In this document: positions 7,695 through 33,849 of the stretch, in pieces
Layout of the letters: each line of letters opens with the position of its first letter
Position numbering within the stretch: the first letter of the stretch is position 1
Origin: an uncultured Pseudomonadota bacterium
GTDB taxonomy: Bacteria; Pseudomonadota; Alphaproteobacteria; RUG11792
DNA: 64,000 bases
Assembly (NCBI GenBank): GCA_902784055.1
Contig: CACZTP010000001.1
Span: forward strand, 10,755 to 74,754
Direction: 5' to 3'
Program-made: the position numbers and the translations under genes
Notes under the pieces: model-generated
What the model was told of the DNA's origin: nothing
The model's input: only the letters and a program-made list of their open reading frames with translations
Database searches by the model: none

Positions 7695-7974
7695 AAACCA
7701 CTTCAACGAATAGTTTTAAAAAAATGTTGTTTGCTACATTCTTTACTCTTGTATGAATATTATTATATTCCTACCAACGGGTGTTTCAATTTTTAGTTAG
7801 AAGCTTATTAAAAAAATATCCAAGATTTTGTCAATTTGGCGCTGAAGATGCGTTAAATAGTACGTATAAGTCTAAACGACAAGCACCAAGCTGTTAAGTT
7901 GTAGCTACGATGTTTTTCTCTAAACTGTAGTGTAAACTAGCATTGAAAGCTTACAAAGCAACGGTTAAAAATTA

Positions 7975-8757
7975 ATGCTTCAGAGAGTAATTGTTTTTGG
8001 AAATCAAAAGGGTGGGACAGGCAAATCCACCCTTGCGATGCATCTTACAGTTAGTCTTTTGCATCAGGGATATAAAGTTGCAACAATAGATGTTGATGCA
8101 AAGCAAGGGACGTTTACAAGGTATATAGAAAATAGGATAAAAACAAGCCAAAGCGATCCTAAAATTAAATATCCTACACATAGATCCATTTTCGAGAGTT
8201 TTTCAGATTCCGTTCGTGTAAAACATAAAGAAAATTTTTTGAAGTTTAGTGAATTAATAAACTCGTTGAAAGATTTCGATTTTATAGTAATCGATACGCC
8301 TGGAAGTGAAACAGATTTATCAAAAATTGCTCATTCGTTTGCAGACGTAATAATTACCCCGTTAAACGAAAGTTTTATTGATCTCGATTTAATAATAAAA
8401 GCAAGCCCAGTAAAATCAGGATTAAATACTGGTTCATATGCTGAAATGGTTTGGGAACAAAAAAAAGCTCGTGCTCAACGAGACAAAAATAGCGTTGATT
8501 GGATAATTTTGTTAAATCGTATGTCAAGCGTAGAATCACGTAATAAAAAAGAACTAGAAAAGATTTTAATATTACTTTCTAAACGCCTTGGATTTAGATT
8601 TATAAAAGGATTTAAAGAACGAATTATTTTTAAGGAATTGTTTTTATCAGGCTTAACCCTTCTTGATGGAAATACTACTCGTACAGGTCTTAATTTGTCT
8701 CACATTGCAGCTCGCCAAGAGTTAAAAAATCTTCTTAAGGAGCTTAATGTAGCATGA
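7975..8757 (+). CDS. mipZ: Division-plane positioning ATPase MipZ (ParA/MinD superfamily)
   Basis: VIVFGNQKGGTGKST deviant Walker A, IDTPG, ITPLNESFIDLD, ILLNRMSSVESRNKK, LGFRFIKGFKERIIFKELF, HIAARQELKNL. Collinear with Caulobacter MipZ as I recall it. Confidence 0.85.
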   Translation: MLQRVIVFGNQKGGTGKSTLAMHLTVSLLHQGYKVATIDVDAKQGTFTRYIENRIKTSQSDPKIKYPTHRSIFESFSDSVRVKHKENFLKFSELINSLKDFDFIVIDTPGSETDLSKIAHSFADVIITPLNESFIDLDLIIKASPVKSGLNTGSYAEMVWEQKKARAQRDKNSVDWIILLNRMSSVESRNKKELEKILILLSKRLGFRFIKGFKERIIFKELFLSGLTLLDGNTTRTGLNLSHIAARQELKNLLKELNVA

Positions 8758-26586: not shown

Positions 26587-27129
26587 ATGACAAATTATAA
26601 AAAAGATGAAGAAATGTCAATGGAGGATATATTATCTTCCATACGAAAATACGTTGCAGATGAAAAAAACACAGATTCCTTTGATAAACATGAAAATGGG
26701 ATAGTTCAGGATCAGTATCCAAGTGAGCAATACGATACACAATCGAGGGAAGACAACGATAATGTAATAACTTTGGGGCAGGAAGATGTCGCTGAACAAT
26801 CTGGCGGGACAGGGCATATTTCCGACGATAACATCGTTTTAGGAAATTCAACCACTGATTTCAATAATTTGAATGCCGAAGATACTACAGTAGGAACCTA
26901 TTCTGGGGCTACAGACAGAAATAGAGAAAGTCCATTTAATAAACTTGCAGAGGCATTAAAAACATACGGAACGCGTAAAAAGAACACGGAGTTAAGTATA
27001 AAGATGTCAATGGAACAGTTTTTTCGCACTGTTACTGAAAATTATTTACAAAAGTGGATGGATGCTAATATTAAAAGGGCTGTTGATGAAATAGTCCGAA
27101 AAGAAATAGAGAAGTTAAAACAGGAGTGA
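26587..27129 (+). CDS. popZ: DUF2497 / PopZ-like pole-organising protein
   Basis: N-terminal ..EEMSMEDILSSIRKYV (cf. PopZ EP.MEEILASIRRII), an acidic low-complexity middle, and a C-terminal helical ..YLQKWMDANIKRAVDEIVRKEIEKL. Confidence 0.7.
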   Translation: MTNYKKDEEMSMEDILSSIRKYVADEKNTDSFDKHENGIVQDQYPSEQYDTQSREDNDNVITLGQEDVAEQSGGTGHISDDNIVLGNSTTDFNNLNAEDTTVGTYSGATDRNRESPFNKLAEALKTYGTRKKNTELSIKMSMEQFFRTVTENYLQKWMDANIKRAVDEIVRKEIEKLKQE

Positions 27130-28212: not shown

Positions 28213-28929
28213 ATGTATTATATAGACGTTAACAATCGTGGAGTTAATCAACGGCTGGCAATATCAATCGAAAAGATAAGCCGACTAGAAGAAATGCTTA
28301 ATTACGAGTTTAAAAACAAAGAAACAATACGCTCTGCATTACGTCATTCAAGCATAAAGAGGGTTGCGATTCCTTTTGAACGTTTAGAATTCTTGGGAGA
28401 TAGAATTTTGGGAGTTGTAATTGCTGAGTACATATACAGATCAACAAAAGGTGATGAAGGAGGCATGGCTCGTATGCATTCTGCTCTAGTTTGTGCGGAT
28501 GCGTGTTATTCAATAGCCTTGCATTTAGGTCTGAATGAGATAGTCAAAACGGCAGGGAAACACTTAAGAAACAATAAAACTGTGTTAGCTGACGCAATGG
28601 AGGCAGTGCTAGGGGCTGTATTTACAGATAGCGGTAGAGACTACTTGAAAGTGGAAGAAATAGTTTTAAATCTTTGGAGACCTCTTGTTTTAAGATATAA
28701 AGCATCAGAGCAGGAGCCTAAAACTCAGCTTCAAGAACTTGTTCAATCTCGATCAAATGCAGTTCCGGTTTATACGCTGTTAGAAGTTTCTGGGGCACAA
28801 CATCAGCCTGTGTTTAAGGTTCAGGTATCAGCGTTAGGTAAATCGGTTGAAACATTAGGTCACTCTAAAAAAGAAGCTGAAACAATAGCTGCGCGCGAGC
28901 TATTGCATTTGTTGAGAAATGAAAATTAA
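28213..28929 (+). CDS. rnc: Ribonuclease III
   Basis: ERLEFLGDRILG signature, ADAMEAVLGA, C-terminal dsRBD. Start set at ATG 28213 just after the lepB stop (the track ORF begins at 28159). Confidence 0.92.
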   Translation: MYYIDVNNRGVNQRLAISIEKISRLEEMLNYEFKNKETIRSALRHSSIKRVAIPFERLEFLGDRILGVVIAEYIYRSTKGDEGGMARMHSALVCADACYSIALHLGLNEIVKTAGKHLRNNKTVLADAMEAVLGAVFTDSGRDYLKVEEIVLNLWRPLVLRYKASEQEPKTQLQELVQSRSNAVPVYTLLEVSGAQHQPVFKVQVSALGKSVETLGHSKKEAETIAARELLHLLRNEN

Positions 28930-30884
28930 TCTAAATCGAGCATTGAACCGATGTTTATGTTATCATTATCTTTATCTGGTACATCCCGTGTTGATGTTTC
29001 GTTTTTTTCGGCTTCTTTAATATAGTTTTTTAAAAACCTTGCAATAACACGTGTCGGAATACGTCCACCAGTTGACTTTGACGTCATTTTATCATGGAGA
29101 CTATCATTACCAACCCATACACCAAAAGCAAGACCATTATCAGTTTTTTCTGTATTGACCGATTCTTCATCATCGTCGGTTTCGTCGTATGGATCATAAA
29201 ACCCGATAAACCAAGCATCAGTATCGCCATTACTTCCTGTTTTACCGTAGACTTCATCGTTAACCTTGGCAGCGCGCCCTGACCCCCTTTGTACTACTGA
29301 ATGTAATAATTCTCGGCAGTTATCTAAAACCTCACTGTCTAACACATCTATTGGAGTTGGCTCTTCTCTTGTGTACAAAATAGTTCCATCTTTTTTCCTT
29401 ATTTCAACAACACAGTAAGGAACAACTTCATATCCATCCATAAATGATGCAAATGCCGCCGTAATATCTTTTAATGTAACTGGAGTGGTACCCAAAGCAA
29501 CACTTAAATCATTTTCTGAGACATTTGTTATTCCTAACTTTTTAGCAAATTGTGAAACACGATGTAGTCCTATTGATTTAGCTAGCCTTATGCAAGGAGA
29601 ATTTACAGAATAAGTAAAAGCATCAATTAAAGATATTGAACCACGAGTACACCATCCGAAGTTACTGGGGTGCCAGTTTCCTATTGATATAGGCGCGTCT
29701 GAAATTTGATCGTATATTTGATATCCATATTCAAGAGCGGCTCCGTAAACAAAAATTTTAAAAGCGGAACCAGGAAAACGTTGAGCCTGAGTAACTCTAT
29801 TAAATTGAGTCGCTGAATAATCAGAACCGCCAATCATTGCTTGTATTGCGCCATTCCTATCCATACATATAAAAGAAATTTGACTAAATTTATAATTATT
29901 TCCTTCAGTATTTAAGTAGAACGATGTCGCTTCATCAGCAATACGTTGTTTTTTATCATCGAATGTTGTAACGACTATTATGTCATCTTCTAATTCTCCA
30001 AGTATTTTTTTTGATTGCTCATAAGCAAAACTACAAAAATATTGAGAGCTGTCTTTTCCCCTAACTGTATGAGAAAATGCTTTTTCTGCTTCTTTTCCTT
30101 CAATATCCTTTGCGCTTTTTATATACCCCTGTTCTTCCATTTGTTTTAGGACTACAACAGCCCTATCATGAGCATAGTTTTTGTGATTTGATGGGTTGTA
30201 TTTTGCTGGGGCTCTTAATGCTCCTGCTAAAACAGCCGATTCGAAAACACCCAGTTGTGACGCAGGTTTATTAAAATACTTTTTTGATGCTGCATCTATG
30301 CCATAAGTTCCAGCTCCAAAATATACACGATTAAGGTACATCATTATTATTTCTGACTTAGTAAATTTATATTCAATCCACAGCGCTAGTAAAAGTTCTC
30401 TAATCTTACGCCCTATTGATCGATCGTTATGTGATACCATTCCTTCGCCGATCAATATATTCTTAGCAAGCTGTTGCGTTATAGTAGAGCCTCCTTGAAC
30501 AACTCTATGGGCAATGTAATTTTGATAAACAGCTCTAGAAAAACCTATAATATCAAAACCGATGTGGCTATAAAACCTTTTGTCTTCTATTGCAATAAAT
30601 GCATTAATAACATGTTCTGGGAGGGATTTTACTTGTACAACATCTTCATACAAATCCCCAAACGTTCCTAATGTTGTTCCGTTATAGGATTGTATTTCAA
30701 CAGAAGGGGAACGTATAGCTGTATTTATATTGTTAATGTCGGGCAAATCTTTTGCATAGTAAATTAACACCCCACCAACTGATAAACAGCCGACACAAAA
30801 GAATATCCCTATTAATTTAAAAAACACTCTTATGAATGAATGTTTTTCTGCCTTTTTAAATTTATATTTTTTACGCTTATTCAT
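28926..30884 (-). CDS. mrcA: Class A penicillin-binding protein (glycosyltransferase plus transpeptidase)
   Basis: GT51 motifs EDKRFYSHIGFD, GGSTITQQLAKN, RKIRE. Transpeptidase motifs PGSAFK (SxxK) and GKTGS. Confidence 0.9.
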   Translation of the reverse strand: MNKRKKYKFKKAEKHSFIRVFFKLIGIFFCVGCLSVGGVLIYYAKDLPDINNINTAIRSPSVEIQSYNGTTLGTFGDLYEDVVQVKSLPEHVINAFIAIEDKRFYSHIGFDIIGFSRAVYQNYIAHRVVQGGSTITQQLAKNILIGEGMVSHNDRSIGRKIRELLLALWIEYKFTKSEIIMMYLNRVYFGAGTYGIDAASKKYFNKPASQLGVFESAVLAGALRAPAKYNPSNHKNYAHDRAVVVLKQMEEQGYIKSAKDIEGKEAEKAFSHTVRGKDSSQYFCSFAYEQSKKILGELEDDIIVVTTFDDKKQRIADEATSFYLNTEGNNYKFSQISFICMDRNGAIQAMIGGSDYSATQFNRVTQAQRFPGSAFKIFVYGAALEYGYQIYDQISDAPISIGNWHPSNFGWCTRGSISLIDAFTYSVNSPCIRLAKSIGLHRVSQFAKKLGITNVSENDLSVALGTTPVTLKDITAAFASFMDGYEVVPYCVVEIRKKDGTILYTREEPTPIDVLDSEVLDNCRELLHSVVQRGSGRAAKVNDEVYGKTGSNGDTDAWFIGFYDPYDETDDDEESVNTEKTDNGLAFGVWVGNDSLHDKMTSKSTGGRIPTRVIARFLKNYIKEAEKNETSTRDVPDKDNDNINIGSMLDLD

Positions 30885-31197
30885 CTGCCGTTAATTTTTT
30901 AACTAACATTTCTAATTCTTCATATGTTTTACATTGAATTGATAGCTTTCCACCTTTACGAGTTATAACTAGCGAAGTTTGCAACCCAATTGCTTGTTCA
31001 ATACTATTAGCAATTTCTATCGCTTCCTCGTTTTTAGCTGGTAAAATAAGTGTTCCATCACTACTATTGCGTTCTACTACTGCTTTTTTTTGTTCTTTTT
31101 TATTCTTATGAGAATTCGATACGTCGATCGCTTCTGTTTCATCTAACTGCATATCTCCAAACAATGCAGATAATCCACGACCTAGTTTATTTGCCAC
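30877..31197 (-). CDS. parB: Severely truncated ParB (106 aa): N-terminal LGRGL peptide fused to the C-terminal dimerisation domain; no CTPase or HTH region
   Basis: GTG 31197 gives MANKLGRGLSALF... The C-terminus AIGLQTSLVITRKGGKLSIQCKTYEELEMLVKKL fits the ParB C-terminal pattern LG..V.I.....G.l.I.f.s.eeL..l...L. The track extension to 31257 lies inside parA. Confidence 0.7.
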   Translation of the reverse strand: MANKLGRGLSALFGDMQLDETEAIDVSNSHKNKKEQKKAVVERNSSDGTLILPAKNEEAIEIANSIEQAIGLQTSLVITRKGGKLSIQCKTYEELEMLVKKLTADE

Positions 31198-31958
31198 TTT
31201 TTTTGCCTTTCTAAAAATTCTTTTGCTAATTCCATATAAGCACATGCTCCCACACATTTAACATCATATATAAGAACAGGTTTACCATGAGATGGCGCCT
31301 CAGATATTCTTGTATTTCTAGGAATTACAGTATTAAATACTTGTTTCCCCATTGTTGTCCTGACATCGTTTTCTACTGATAGGCTTAATGCGTTTCTTTT
31401 GTCGTGCATTGTTAACAGTATTCCGAAAATACGCAAAGTGGGATTGAAAGAGTTTTTTACACGTTTCACAGAGTTTATCAAGTAATTCAATCCTTCCATC
31501 GCGTAGTATTCACATTGTAAAGGCACTATAACACCGTCAGCTGCGACCAAACCATTAAGGGTTAATATTCCCATTGAGGGTGGACTATCTATAATTATGT
31601 AATCAAATCTTTTATTGTATTGAAATAGTGCATTTCTCAATATAGTTTCTCTATTTTCGGCTTGAACTAATTCTATTTCCGCCCCTATAAGGTTTATATT
31701 TGACGGAGCTAGTGTTAAACCAGGGATTGATGTTTGAAGAATTATACCGTTTAGATTTTTAGATTGGATCATTAAATCATAAGTCGAACCGTTTTTTGTA
31801 GAATAAATACCCAATCCAGTTGTTGCATTACTCTGTGGATCTAAATCAATAAGTAATACCTTTTTTTTTACAGCAGCAAGTGCAGTAGCAAGATTAACAG
31901 CAGTTGTTGTCTTACCTACTCCTCCTTTTTGGTTAGAAATCAAAACTGTTAAAGCCAC
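31182..31958 (-). CDS. parA: Chromosome partitioning ATPase ParA/Soj
   Basis: NQKGGVGKTTTAVNLA, LLIDLDPQ.N.T, IIIDSPPS, IPRN.R..EAPS.G. Confidence 0.93.
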   Translation of the reverse strand: MALTVLISNQKGGVGKTTTAVNLATALAAVKKKVLLIDLDPQSNATTGLGIYSTKNGSTYDLMIQSKNLNGIILQTSIPGLTLAPSNINLIGAEIELVQAENRETILRNALFQYNKRFDYIIIDSPPSMGILTLNGLVAADGVIVPLQCEYYAMEGLNYLINSVKRVKNSFNPTLRIFGILLTMHDKRNALSLSVENDVRTTMGKQVFNTVIPRNTRISEAPSHGKPVLIYDVKCVGACAYMELAKEFLERQKKWQIN

Positions 31959-32024: not shown

Positions 32025-32567
32025 CTATGTTAATTGTACTTTTAGTAAAATACTGTCAGATGTTAGAGAGCTTTTTATTGGTTCATAACGAATATTACAG
32101 ATGTTATTTAACTCCGATTTCCACGTTTTGCCCCGGTGGAATATCCCTTCTTGTATTGAGAGTTTTTGCATTATATCTATTAATATTTCAAGCGAACCGA
32201 AAGCTCTTGAAACGGCAAAAAATGGTTTTTCATACATAGATGTGTCCATTTTGTAAATATCTCCTGTATATATTTGACATTTCAGCTTTAACAATCGACG
32301 CACTTCTTTTAAAAAAACTGATTTTTTAATGTCTTTTTCAATAAGGACTATATTATCAAACCCTGCAATTGCCAAGATAATACCAGGAAGCCCTGCACCA
32401 CTTCCTATGTCAAAAATAGTTCCATTTTTAGGTAAATAAGGAGCAAGTTGTAAACTATCATCAATATGTCGTGTTTTAACATCTCTTAATGTATCGGCTT
32501 GTACAAGATTGATATGTTTATTCCAATTGTTTAATAGTTCGATATATTTATAAAAAACGTTATTCAT
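32025..32567 (-). CDS. rsmG: 16S rRNA (guanine527-N7)-methyltransferase RsmG (GidB)
   Basis: W N..INL, DIGSGAGLPGI, SRA. Canonical position upstream of parAB. Confidence 0.9.
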   Translation of the reverse strand: MNNVFYKYIELLNNWNKHINLVQADTLRDVKTRHIDDSLQLAPYLPKNGTIFDIGSGAGLPGIILAIAGFDNIVLIEKDIKKSVFLKEVRRLLKLKCQIYTGDIYKMDTSMYEKPFFAVSRAFGSLEILIDIMQKLSIQEGIFHRGKTWKSELNNICNIRYEPIKSSLTSDSILLKVQLT

Positions 32568-32581
32568 TCGTTACCCAAATT

Positions 32582-33175
32582 TTATTTGTCACCCAATTTT
32601 TTATATATCGGAGTAGATGAATATTCGATATCAACACTTTCTTTTATTAAACCGTCTTCATCGTTAATAATATTCGGAATTTCTCCGTTAAAATAATCAC
32701 ATAACGCAACATATTGCATATACGCCAAGTTAACATTATTATTTAATAAATCCGCATCGATAATAACGTTTTTATATTTTGATTCTAAGTTTTCTAATGA
32801 ATCGGTTGATTGCCCAGAAAGTTTACCGTTTATAACTTCTCTATAATAAAAACTTCCACAATAAGAATTAATTGCGATAGCTTCACAATCTTTATTAGCG
32901 TGGAAATACGTCAGGAAATTCGATACACTTATAAATCTCACATTTGGATTAACAAGTTTAAGAGCTTTAATAATTGAGTTAACTATTCTTTGGGTTGTAA
33001 ACGTTAAAACTCCAGCAGAATATATAACTTTTGTTATATTTTTATCTCTTATTTCGTCACTTAAAAGCAATGGAGCTACATCGGCAATTTTATATGCATC
33101 CGAAAGGGCGTGCATTCTTGAAGTGTTAGGGCTAAAAATATGGCAACAGTTATTGCATAAGAAAAATGACAACAT
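32582..33175 (-). CDS. tsaB: Divergent TsaB (YeaZ)-like protein
   Basis: Collinear with TsaB, but the conserved blocks are degenerate: DTS is replaced by LCN, and GPGSFTG.RIG by SAGVLTFTTQRIV. Similarity then continues (..ISVSNF..; AINSYCGSFYY). Overlaps the upstream gene by 1 nt. Confidence 0.55.
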   Translation of the reverse strand: MLSFFLCNNCCHIFSPNTSRMHALSDAYKIADVAPLLLSDEIRDKNITKVIYSAGVLTFTTQRIVNSIIKALKLVNPNVRFISVSNFLTYFHANKDCEAIAINSYCGSFYYREVINGKLSGQSTDSLENLESKYKNVIIDADLLNNNVNLAYMQYVALCDYFNGEIPNIINDEDGLIKESVDIEYSSTPIYKKLGDK

Positions 33176-33849
33176 TATGACCTCACTTTTATATTTATTA
33201 CTTTCTTTAATTTTTCAAGCTCAGCATCGTTGGGTAATGATAAGGCTACATCATCTTTATCTTCATACCTCAGTACACACTGTTGTAATACCCACTCTTT
33301 CACGTTATTATCCTTCAAAAAATGTGCAATTTCTAATAAGTCGTCAAAATTTATATATCGGCTATCAACTGTTGTACGTATTTCGAAATCTAAATTATTA
33401 CGATGTTTAAGCATTTTTATAAAAGACTTTTCGGCTATATTACCAGAGTTTGAAACGCCGGTTATTTTCTCATAATTTTTAAAAGTTGTTTTTATATCAA
33501 ACCCCACCCAATCAACAACTGGTAAGATTTCACAAAATCTTTCATATATGTACCCGCTTGTATGCAAACCGACGGCAAAACCTAATTTTTTTACTTGAAC
33601 CATCGCTTCGTATAAATCTGATTGAAATAATGGCTCGCCACCACAAAAGACAATCCCTTCTAATAAACCTACTCTGCTTTTTAAAAAGCTGATTACATCA
33701 CTAAATGGTATGGTACCTGGGCTTATAGGCTGAAGATCTGCGTTATGACAATAAGAACATCTTAGGGGGCACCCTTGAGTAAAAATAATCGCCGACATTT
33801 TCCCTGGATAATCCAGCATTGAAAAATGTTGTATTGCGGCGATTTTCAT
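33175..33849 (-). CDS. Radical-SAM activating enzyme of the anaerobic RNR activase (NrdG/TIGR02495-like) type
   Basis: MKIAAIQHFSMLDYPGKMSAIIFTQGCPLRCSYCHN (CxxxCxxC cluster), then FCGGEPL. 224 aa. Confidence 0.8.
   Translation of the reverse strand: MKIAAIQHFSMLDYPGKMSAIIFTQGCPLRCSYCHNADLQPISPGTIPFSDVISFLKSRVGLLEGIVFCGGEPLFQSDLYEAMVQVKKLGFAVGLHTSGYIYERFCEILPVVDWVGFDIKTTFKNYEKITGVSNSGNIAEKSFIKMLKHRNNLDFEIRTTVDSRYINFDDLLEIAHFLKDNNVKEWVLQQCVLRYEDKDDVALSLPNDAELEKLKKVINIKVRS

Follow-up and report, generated by a model that had tools for sequence, protein, structure and literature searches.

What can a ParB do that has kept neither its CTP-binding domain nor the domain that recognizes parS? In the current view ParB is a CTP-gated DNA clamp whose ParA-activating peptide is thought to be active only when closure of the clamp at parS pairs two peptides. 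The question is raised by a short gene, here called mini-parB, that follows an intact parA in a 64-kb stretch of DNA (the window) from an uncultured alphaproteobacterium; the hosts of this gene as a group are uncultured low-GC alphaproteobacteria, and the GC content of the window is 33.8%. An earlier note, made from the sequence letters, had described the gene as a ParB cut down in frame to its two protein-interacting ends. We find that mini-ParB is a ParB by descent, but two defining features of the family, the CTPase and the helix-turn-helix (HTH), are missing, and plain annotation as ParB is therefore unsuitable. We consider it probable that this deletion-derived parB orthologue acts as a dimeric activator or adaptor of ParA that is independent of CTP and parS. 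The gene and the parts of its product are:

30877..31197, minus strand: mini-parB coding sequence, 106 codons plus stop, GTG start
31156..31197, minus strand: residues 1-14, MANKLGRGLSALFG, ParA-binding, ATPase-stimulating motif with central Arg7 (alignment and ParB hidden Markov model, HMM; role according to PMC12462528)
31057..31155, minus strand: residues 15-47, variable linker, predicted to be disordered, in place of ParB_N and HTH (alignment, AlphaFold2)
31039..31056, minus strand: residues 48-53, motif GT(L/P)I(L/V/M)P before the C-terminal domain (alignment of the mini clade)
30880..31038, minus strand: residues 54-106, ParB C-terminal (dimerisation) domain, predicted alpha-beta-beta-alpha (ParB HMM, P0015 alignment, AlphaFold2)

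The reading frame opens with GTG 31197 and closes with the stop codon TAA at 30877-30879; the product begins with (M)ANKLGRGLSALFG and its C-terminus is ...GGKLSIQCKTYEELEMLVKKLTADE, LVKKLTADE. The start overlaps the end of parA by 16 nt and the stop overlaps the start of the downstream gene, which encodes a class A penicillin-binding protein (PBP1A), by 8 nt (ATGAATAA). The list of open reading frames (ORFs) held a longer version of 126 aa from ATG 31257, which we rejected as the real gene. The 31197 start lies at the position that is conserved in relatives (ATG in the more distant ones, GTG in the window and in the 92% identical L090), in three relatives a stop codon interrupts the frame 4-9 codons before it and no alternative start is available, and the Shine-Dalgarno-like sequence GAAAGG lies 8-14 nt upstream, a sequence of this kind being conserved as well. 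Thus, the length, the GTG start, the overlap with parA and the coupling on both sides stand as the earlier note had read them.

Both ends of the protein are recognizable as ParB. A custom ParB HMM of 295 nodes, built from 70 full-length ParBs encoded downstream of ParA in unrelated genomes, was run without filters against all six frames of the window, and the mini-parB ORF was its sole match (whole-sequence E 1.4e-8). The match falls into an N-terminal piece (HMM positions 5-32, independent E-value 0.0016) and a C-terminal piece (positions 237-293, independent E-value 7.8e-5); the roughly 200 positions between them, 33-236, have no counterpart. In line with this, a Pfam scan of the 106-aa product found neither ParB_N (PF02195, which holds the GERRxRA box), even at E<=1, nor HTH_ParB (PF17762), and Pfam ParB_C (PF23552) matched residues 63-102 with E=0.002 and 18 bits, below its cut-off of 23.8. 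The NCBIfam scan of mini-ParB returned noise only. In sequence searches of the PDB, the profile of the mini proteins (alignment A1) gave no ParB match and only a chance match to eL13, and a mixed profile that included longer ParBs (A2) matched only the ParB_N and HTH parts of solved ParBs.

The missing part is best seen against normal-length ParBs, which came next in the profile search with A1 and were matched at both ends. Those compared are:

L091 5952-6836: P0015, 294 aa, intact ParB with GERRWKAA
L094 325-1083: P0016, 252 aa, GKKRLRSA replaces GERRxRA
L093 5001-5909: P0017, 302 aa, GLKRYVAV replaces GERRxRA
L092 599-1264: P0018, 221 aa, HTH kept, an Asn-rich low-complexity stretch replaces ParB_N

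The best match, P0015, is an ordinary ParB with an intact GERRWKAA box, ParB_N (4e-30) and HTH_ParB (1e-28). Its locus has the gene order of the window (GatC, threonyl-tRNA synthetase, radical-SAM activase, a 194-aa ORF, GidB, ParA, ParB, PBP) and the same overlaps, 16 nt between parA and parB and 8 nt between parB and the PBP gene. In alignment A2 the mini proteins correspond to the two ends of P0015, in which everything from about residue 15 to about residue 235 is replaced by a short linker; the HTH is missing by comparison with P0019 as well as with P0015. From synteny, overlaps and alignment it follows that mini-ParB is the orthologue of a normal chromosomal ParB. The absence of the CTP box and of the HTH is thereby established as first described, and the early figure of about 180 missing residues agrees with the 294 aa of the closest full-length orthologue. 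The N-terminal LGRGL.AL peptide that the earlier note had recognized is equally well founded, on the HMM match at positions 5-32 and on its invariance among orthologues, and so is the assignment of the C-terminal domain by sequence (HMM positions 237-293 and the P0015 alignment). The homology of residues 54-106 to the ParB C-terminal domain is convincing as judged by sequence; the assignment rests on the alignment of orthologues, with which the evidence from the fold is only weakly consistent, and dimerisation would be expected from it.

ParB has been eroded in sister lineages as well. The N-terminal motif and the C-terminal domain are kept in P0016, P0017 and P0018, and all four ParBs of L091-L094 occupy the parA-parB slot; of these, L091 and L092 have a confirmed PBP gene downstream, partial ORFs downstream of parB in L093 and L094 having been left out of the neighbour comparison. 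In a neighbour-joining tree of ParA the mini-bearing lineages form one weakly supported group (43%), their sister group contains L091, L092 and L093, and the next relative is a metagenome-assembled genome of the Paracaedibacteraceae. L092 pairs with the full-length lineage L091 at 90%, so that the loss of ParB_N in L092 was independent of the mini deletion. The nearest full-length ParBs come from records named 'Alphaproteobacteria bacterium' and 'Holosporales bacterium'. The record names STEW19, XIEF21 and LIUQ22 presumably stand for gut metagenomes of ruminants or of animals.

Nine clusters of orthologues, all of 106-117 aa and with 53-100% identity, were retrieved from 5.8 billion proteins by a word-indexed search. 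The identical 106-aa protein, P0001, is encoded on at least 12 contigs from different samples and pipelines (ENA, Logan, NCBI) that were assembled independently, which rules out an assembly error or collapse that removed the middle of the gene. When 1.84 billion representative proteins were searched with the A1 profile, free of filters, no more than two mini clusters turned up at 50% identity; the mini-ParBs are thus a single small clade. P0020, P0028 and P0038 were rejected as further members: they are contig-end fragments of normal ParBs that lack a Met and start inside the HTH. Comparison of orthologous loci, proposed in the earlier note, showed that in the loci examined (L081-L090) mini-parB is flanked by parA and the PBP gene and that the overlaps are conserved.

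Conservation is confined to the two ends. The 40 invariant columns of alignment A1 all lie within residues 1-14 and 48-105, and K4 L5 G6 R7 G8 L9 A11 L12 F13 G14 are invariant across the nine clusters. The linker varies from 33 to 44 aa and is not conserved in sequence; insertions and deletions occur only there and always in frame, and the reading frame is open in all nine clusters. According to Nei-Gojobori counts between five lineages, synonymous sites of mini-parB are saturated (proportion of synonymous differences, pS, 0.62-0.81), whereas for nonsynonymous differences the proportion, pN, reaches only 0.08 within the N-terminal motif and 0.16 within the C-terminal module, codons that overlap the neighbours being excluded from the module values. 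The ratio of nonsynonymous to synonymous rates (omega) for the whole gene is 0.10-0.28, compared to 0.06-0.12 for parA and 0.06-0.11 for gidB; since dS is saturated, these are upper bounds. Both ends of mini-ParB are under purifying selection, as would be expected of a protein with two functional ends, and the earlier argument for a retained function rather than a dead gene is sustained by conservation, pN/pS and the independent contigs.

Within the mini clade the motif before the C-terminal domain does not vary at four of its six positions (G48, T49, I51 and P53). GT(P/L)I(L/V/M)P lies outside the general ParB profile, but is recognizable in the longer P0016 and P0018 and partly in P0015. It may be a docking site for a further partner.

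AlphaFold2, run on the alignment of the nine sequences, gave a model with a mean pLDDT (predicted local distance difference test) of 63. A short helix is predicted for residues 7-13; regular secondary structure is absent from residues 14-53, where pLDDT stays under 50 between 19 and 42. The C-terminal part is predicted as a compact unit (alpha 54-70, beta 77-81, beta 84-88, alpha 92-102; pLDDT 72-81). A Foldseek search of this model against the PDB returned nothing significant; 5noc, the C-terminal domain of Bacillus subtilis ParB, ranked 7th with E=1.1, and its superposition (target-normalised template-modelling score 0.50, root-mean-square deviation 3.4 A, 53 columns) is likewise not significant.

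A consensus parS (TGTTNCACGTGAAACA-like, up to two mismatches) is absent from the 64-kb window and from 8 kb beyond it, reached via L095, the search having been for consensus parS and not for other repeats or palindromes. None with up to one mismatch was found in four related mini-ParB loci either. As a control we took 80 parAB loci of the ordinary kind, each about 10 kb long, from among the matches listed in a contig scan with ParA as query, which was also the source of the ParBs for the HMM; a parS with up to one mismatch was present in 48 of these 80 loci and an exact one in 33. However, consensus parS is also absent from the 7 kb of the sister locus L091, which has a full-length ParB, and the evidence from parS is therefore only suggestive. 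No second ParB-like ORF was found in the ~72 kb of this genome, nor in the 7-12-kb stretches of L081, L084, L088 and L089. Of the whole-genome search for parS and a second parB that the earlier note had envisaged, the negative outcome thus stands for ~72 kb, which falls short of the genome.

The ParA next to mini-ParB is intact. The genes on either side of mini-parB and upstream of parA are:

31182..31958, minus strand: parA, intact, 258 aa, KGGVGKTT (Pfam AAA_31, 1.3e-62)
32025..32567, minus strand: rsmG/gidB, upstream (Pfam GidB, 1.1e-33)
28926..30884, minus strand: class A PBP (PBP1A) with transglycosylase and transpeptidase (Pfam), 8-nt overlap with the mini-parB stop

Aligned to the ParA of Myxococcus (M. 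xanthus numbering as in PMC12462528), the protein keeps both Walker A lysines, D58, D60 and N64 of motif 2 and the Walker B aspartate. DNA-binding R238 is kept (R/K238). In the pocket for the ParB arginine Y81 and E117 are kept, with the exchanges E82D and D110N; D110N is also found in a sister lineage with full-length ParB.

How might such a protein work? In M. xanthus, the central arginine of the ParB N-terminal motif is required for stimulation of the ATPase, and closed clamps loaded with CTP at parS stimulate ParA far better than open ones, probably because closure brings two N-terminal peptides together (PMC12462528). Pairing of the peptides in canonical ParB would thus depend on closure of the clamp with CTP at parS, and would permit a ParA dimer to be bound productively and its ATPase to be stimulated. 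We propose that a chromosomal parB lost its ParB/Srx CTPase and its parS-binding HTH long ago through an in-frame deletion of ~190-220 codons. What would be left is the ParA-activating N-terminal peptide, a disordered tether of 33-44 aa and, after the GTPI.P motif, a C-terminal dimerisation domain of about 55 aa. Since the peptide sits on a flexible tether joined to a dimerisation domain, a homodimer of that domain would pair two ParA-binding peptides permanently. As a constitutive dimer that needs neither CTP nor parS, mini-ParB would then activate the intact, DNA-binding ParA or serve it as an adaptor, and it would control the dimer-monomer cycle of ParA. The lineage would have given up the sliding-clamp, parS-centred partition complex; ParA itself might then control the initiation of replication, as Soj does, or act in positioning with respect to a polar hub. 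The C-terminal part could link ParA to a partner other than the centromere, with the GTPI.P motif and the C-terminal domain as candidates for this second interface and the polar PopZ/MipZ system, encoded nearby, as the obvious candidate partner.

In Caulobacter, MipZ and PopZ depend on ParB, and the ParB-parS complex recruits MipZ. Genes for both are present in the window:

7969..8754, plus strand: mipZ, 262 aa, possible partner (Pfam MipZ PF09140, 7.1e-91, full length)
26587..27129, plus strand: PopZ-like protein with a DUF2497 C-terminal domain, possible partner (PF10691, 3.7e-8, 34.1 bits against a cut-off of 27)

The PopZ-like gene, which is also present in L084, lies ~4 kb from the par locus and encodes an acidic, Asp/Glu-rich N-terminal part; we take DUF2497 to be the PopZ family. 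MipZ matches Caulobacter MipZ 2xj4 with 2.8e-57 and keeps K13 and D42. Mutation of MipZ R196, R219 or L248 weakened ParB-associated foci (PMC7229837); in the MipZ of the window the two arginines are conservatively exchanged (R196K, R219K) and L248 is unchanged, and R198, which binds DNA in Caulobacter MipZ, is replaced by Glu. A search of the literature found no published map of the region or surface of ParB that binds PopZ or MipZ. From their presence in the same window, PopZ and MipZ may be regarded as candidate partners, and a DNA-independent adaptor that joins ParA/MipZ to PopZ, the possibility raised in the earlier note, would be one conceivable role. It is tempting to speculate further, if with considerable doubt, that ParABS was uncoupled from the centromere here and turned into a protein-only module for positioning or regulation. 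A mini-ParB dimer anchored to the polar PopZ/MipZ by the GTPI.P motif and the C-terminal domain would give ParA a cargo other than DNA or a polar sink, MipZ would control the division site without ParB-parS, and the eroded sister ParBs would be stages of a repeatable route.

Compared to canonical ParB/Spo0J, as in Caulobacter crescentus and Myxococcus xanthus and with P0015 as the nearest sequence, mini-ParB shares the gidB-parA-parB slot, the LGRGLxAL motif with its central arginine, a homologous C-terminal domain and the coupling to parA, but has neither the ParB/Srx CTPase (GERRxRA) nor the HTH; with these gone, a CTP-gated sliding clamp and HTH-based recognition of parS are impossible. In function it would resemble the isolated peptides used in vitro (ParB1-20 of M. 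xanthus, residues 1-20 of Thermus Spo0J), but it is a natural product in which the peptide is tethered to a putative dimerisation domain, with the paired arrangement expected as in the closed full-length clamp. With its motif and the pocket residues of ParA both conserved, it would be a candidate for the functional class of ParA/MinD ATPase activators, which stimulate their cognate partner by a short basic peptide. The type Ib proteins ParG (TP228) and omega (pSM19035) are also small and similarly arranged, with an unstructured N-tail that activates a ParA-type ATPase on a C-terminal domain that is small and, in these proteins, dimeric. The likeness is in layout only: ParG and omega are ribbon-helix-helix DNA binders unrelated to ParB, whereas the domain of mini-ParB is ParB-derived and predicted to be alpha-beta-beta-alpha, no ribbon-helix-helix family was found in the Pfam scan of mini-ParB, and, unlike the type Ib centromere-binding proteins, it has no known centromere. 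ParT of the Streptomyces plasmid SCP2 sets a precedent as a CTP-independent ParB-like protein that works with ParA, but it still loads at parS and binds DNA (PMC12260392), whereas mini-ParB has lost the DNA-binding domain altogether. The C-terminal domain of B. subtilis ParB (5NOC, PMC5731820) is small and dimeric, and the likewise small C module of mini-ParB takes the corresponding place in the protein. The two differ in that the B. subtilis domain is rich in lysine and binds DNA, whereas the C module of the mini proteins is neutral to acidic overall. Our literature search found no description of a natural ParB without both the CTPase and the HTH domain, nor of a chromosomal ParB reduced to these two modules.

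Three other explanations have to be weighed against a CTP- and parS-independent activator or adaptor. The C-terminal dimer or a Lys-rich linker could bind DNA, non-specifically or at a new site, and mini-ParB would then be a minimal, type Ib-like partition protein that still segregates the chromosome. A flexible N-tail on a small dimer would parallel ParG and omega. The predicted beta-hairpin of the mini proteins conserves T-[RKS]-[KR]-G-G-[KR], and the C-terminal domain of B. subtilis ParB contacts DNA non-specifically by a lysine-rich hairpin surface (PMC5731820). However, the C module carries a net charge of -3 to 0 and the entire protein one of -2 to +2, which does not resemble a DNA-binding surface rich in lysine. 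The linker lacks conservation, and non-specific binding by itself would leave a cargo unmarked; we regard this explanation as unlikely. Alternatively, mini-ParB could regulate, or be dominant negative over, a second, canonical ParB whose gene lies elsewhere on the chromosome or on a plasmid, and so tune a normal ParABS system, by forming heterodimers through the C-terminal domain or by competing for ParA. The free C-terminal domain of B. subtilis ParB is indeed a dominant negative that disrupts ParB networks (PMC5731820), and coverage of the genome here is ~72 kb. But the mini gene itself fills the orthologous parB slot, the longer ParBs with a similar C-terminus (P0015-P0018) are found in the parA-parB slot of L091-L094 in all four loci examined and are not paralogues, and no further ParB-like ORF turned up in the stretches searched; we regard such a partner role as quite improbable.

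The gene could also be a decaying remnant without a protein function of its own, kept as a spacer for translational coupling of parA and PBP1A. The stop/start overlaps on both sides and the erosion of ParB in sister lineages would fit, as would an omega of 0.49 in the closest pair, the window and L090, a value from only 14 substitutions. Yet the overlaps span only ~5 and ~3 codons, the frame is open in every cluster with length changes restricted to the linker, and amino acid conservation is concentrated in two functional modules while synonymous sites are saturated; this module-specific conservation argues for functional ends and against a coupling spacer, and we give that explanation hardly any weight.

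Several points weigh against our preferred assignment of mini-ParB as an activator or adaptor of ParA. The match to the C-terminal domain is under the Pfam threshold, Foldseek found no significant match and the confidence of the model is moderate (pLDDT 63), and a single mini clade has only 43% support in the ParA tree. The basic T-R-K-G-G-K hairpin is kept and the B. subtilis domain binds DNA (PMC5731820), so that independence of DNA can only be inferred for mini-ParB. With L091 lacking a consensus parS, the clade may use a divergent one, which weakens the argument from parS, and, as the negative results for parS and for a second ParB cover ~72 kb, either may be located elsewhere in the genome. 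The proposed function is read from sequence and a predicted model. Finally, an unregulated activator of ParA may be harmful, and further localisation or regulation might be needed.

The surroundings of the locus are conserved as well. gidB-parA-parB synteny is kept in L081, L084, L088, L089 and L091, and a PBP gene lies downstream of each ParB variant compared (L081-L089, L091, L092). In L089 (3588-5530) PBP1A is split into ORFs of 475 and 176 aa by a frameshift or a sequencing error; mini-parB is intact there. Between gidB and a radical-SAM activase lies a conserved ORF of no known family (32582-33175, minus strand, 197 aa; 169-197 aa in the group), which every member of the group has, the full-length-ParB lineage among them. 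The activase (33175-33849, minus strand) is NrdG-like with Fer4_12 and Radical_SAM, which hints at an anaerobic lifestyle. Just past the 3' end of the window, on the same contig, L095 431-5686 encodes the type VI secretion sheath proteins VipA and VipB, a trypsin-like protease and a secretin; a weak match to Rick_17kDa_Anti at L095 15045-15530 lies inside the window. Rfam and ARAGORN found no tRNA, tmRNA or Rfam family at the gathering threshold in the 64 kb, hence no rRNA that could serve for taxonomy, and the window is unusually poor in RNA genes for a bacterial stretch of this length. The GC-skew profile gave no clear signal of an origin.

If mini-ParB acts as we propose, it is a natural ParB that apparently works without CTP binding or a DNA clamp. 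Evolution would in effect have produced a separation-of-function allele, which lies beside an intact ParA in a genome that encodes MipZ and a PopZ-like protein, and the sister lineages, with a diverged GERR box in some and a lost ParB_N but a kept HTH in another, are a ready comparative series of ParB erosion. This makes three questions testable: whether pairing of the peptides is sufficient for activation of ParA, what ParA does without a centromere complex, and how MipZ and PopZ operate without ParB-parS.

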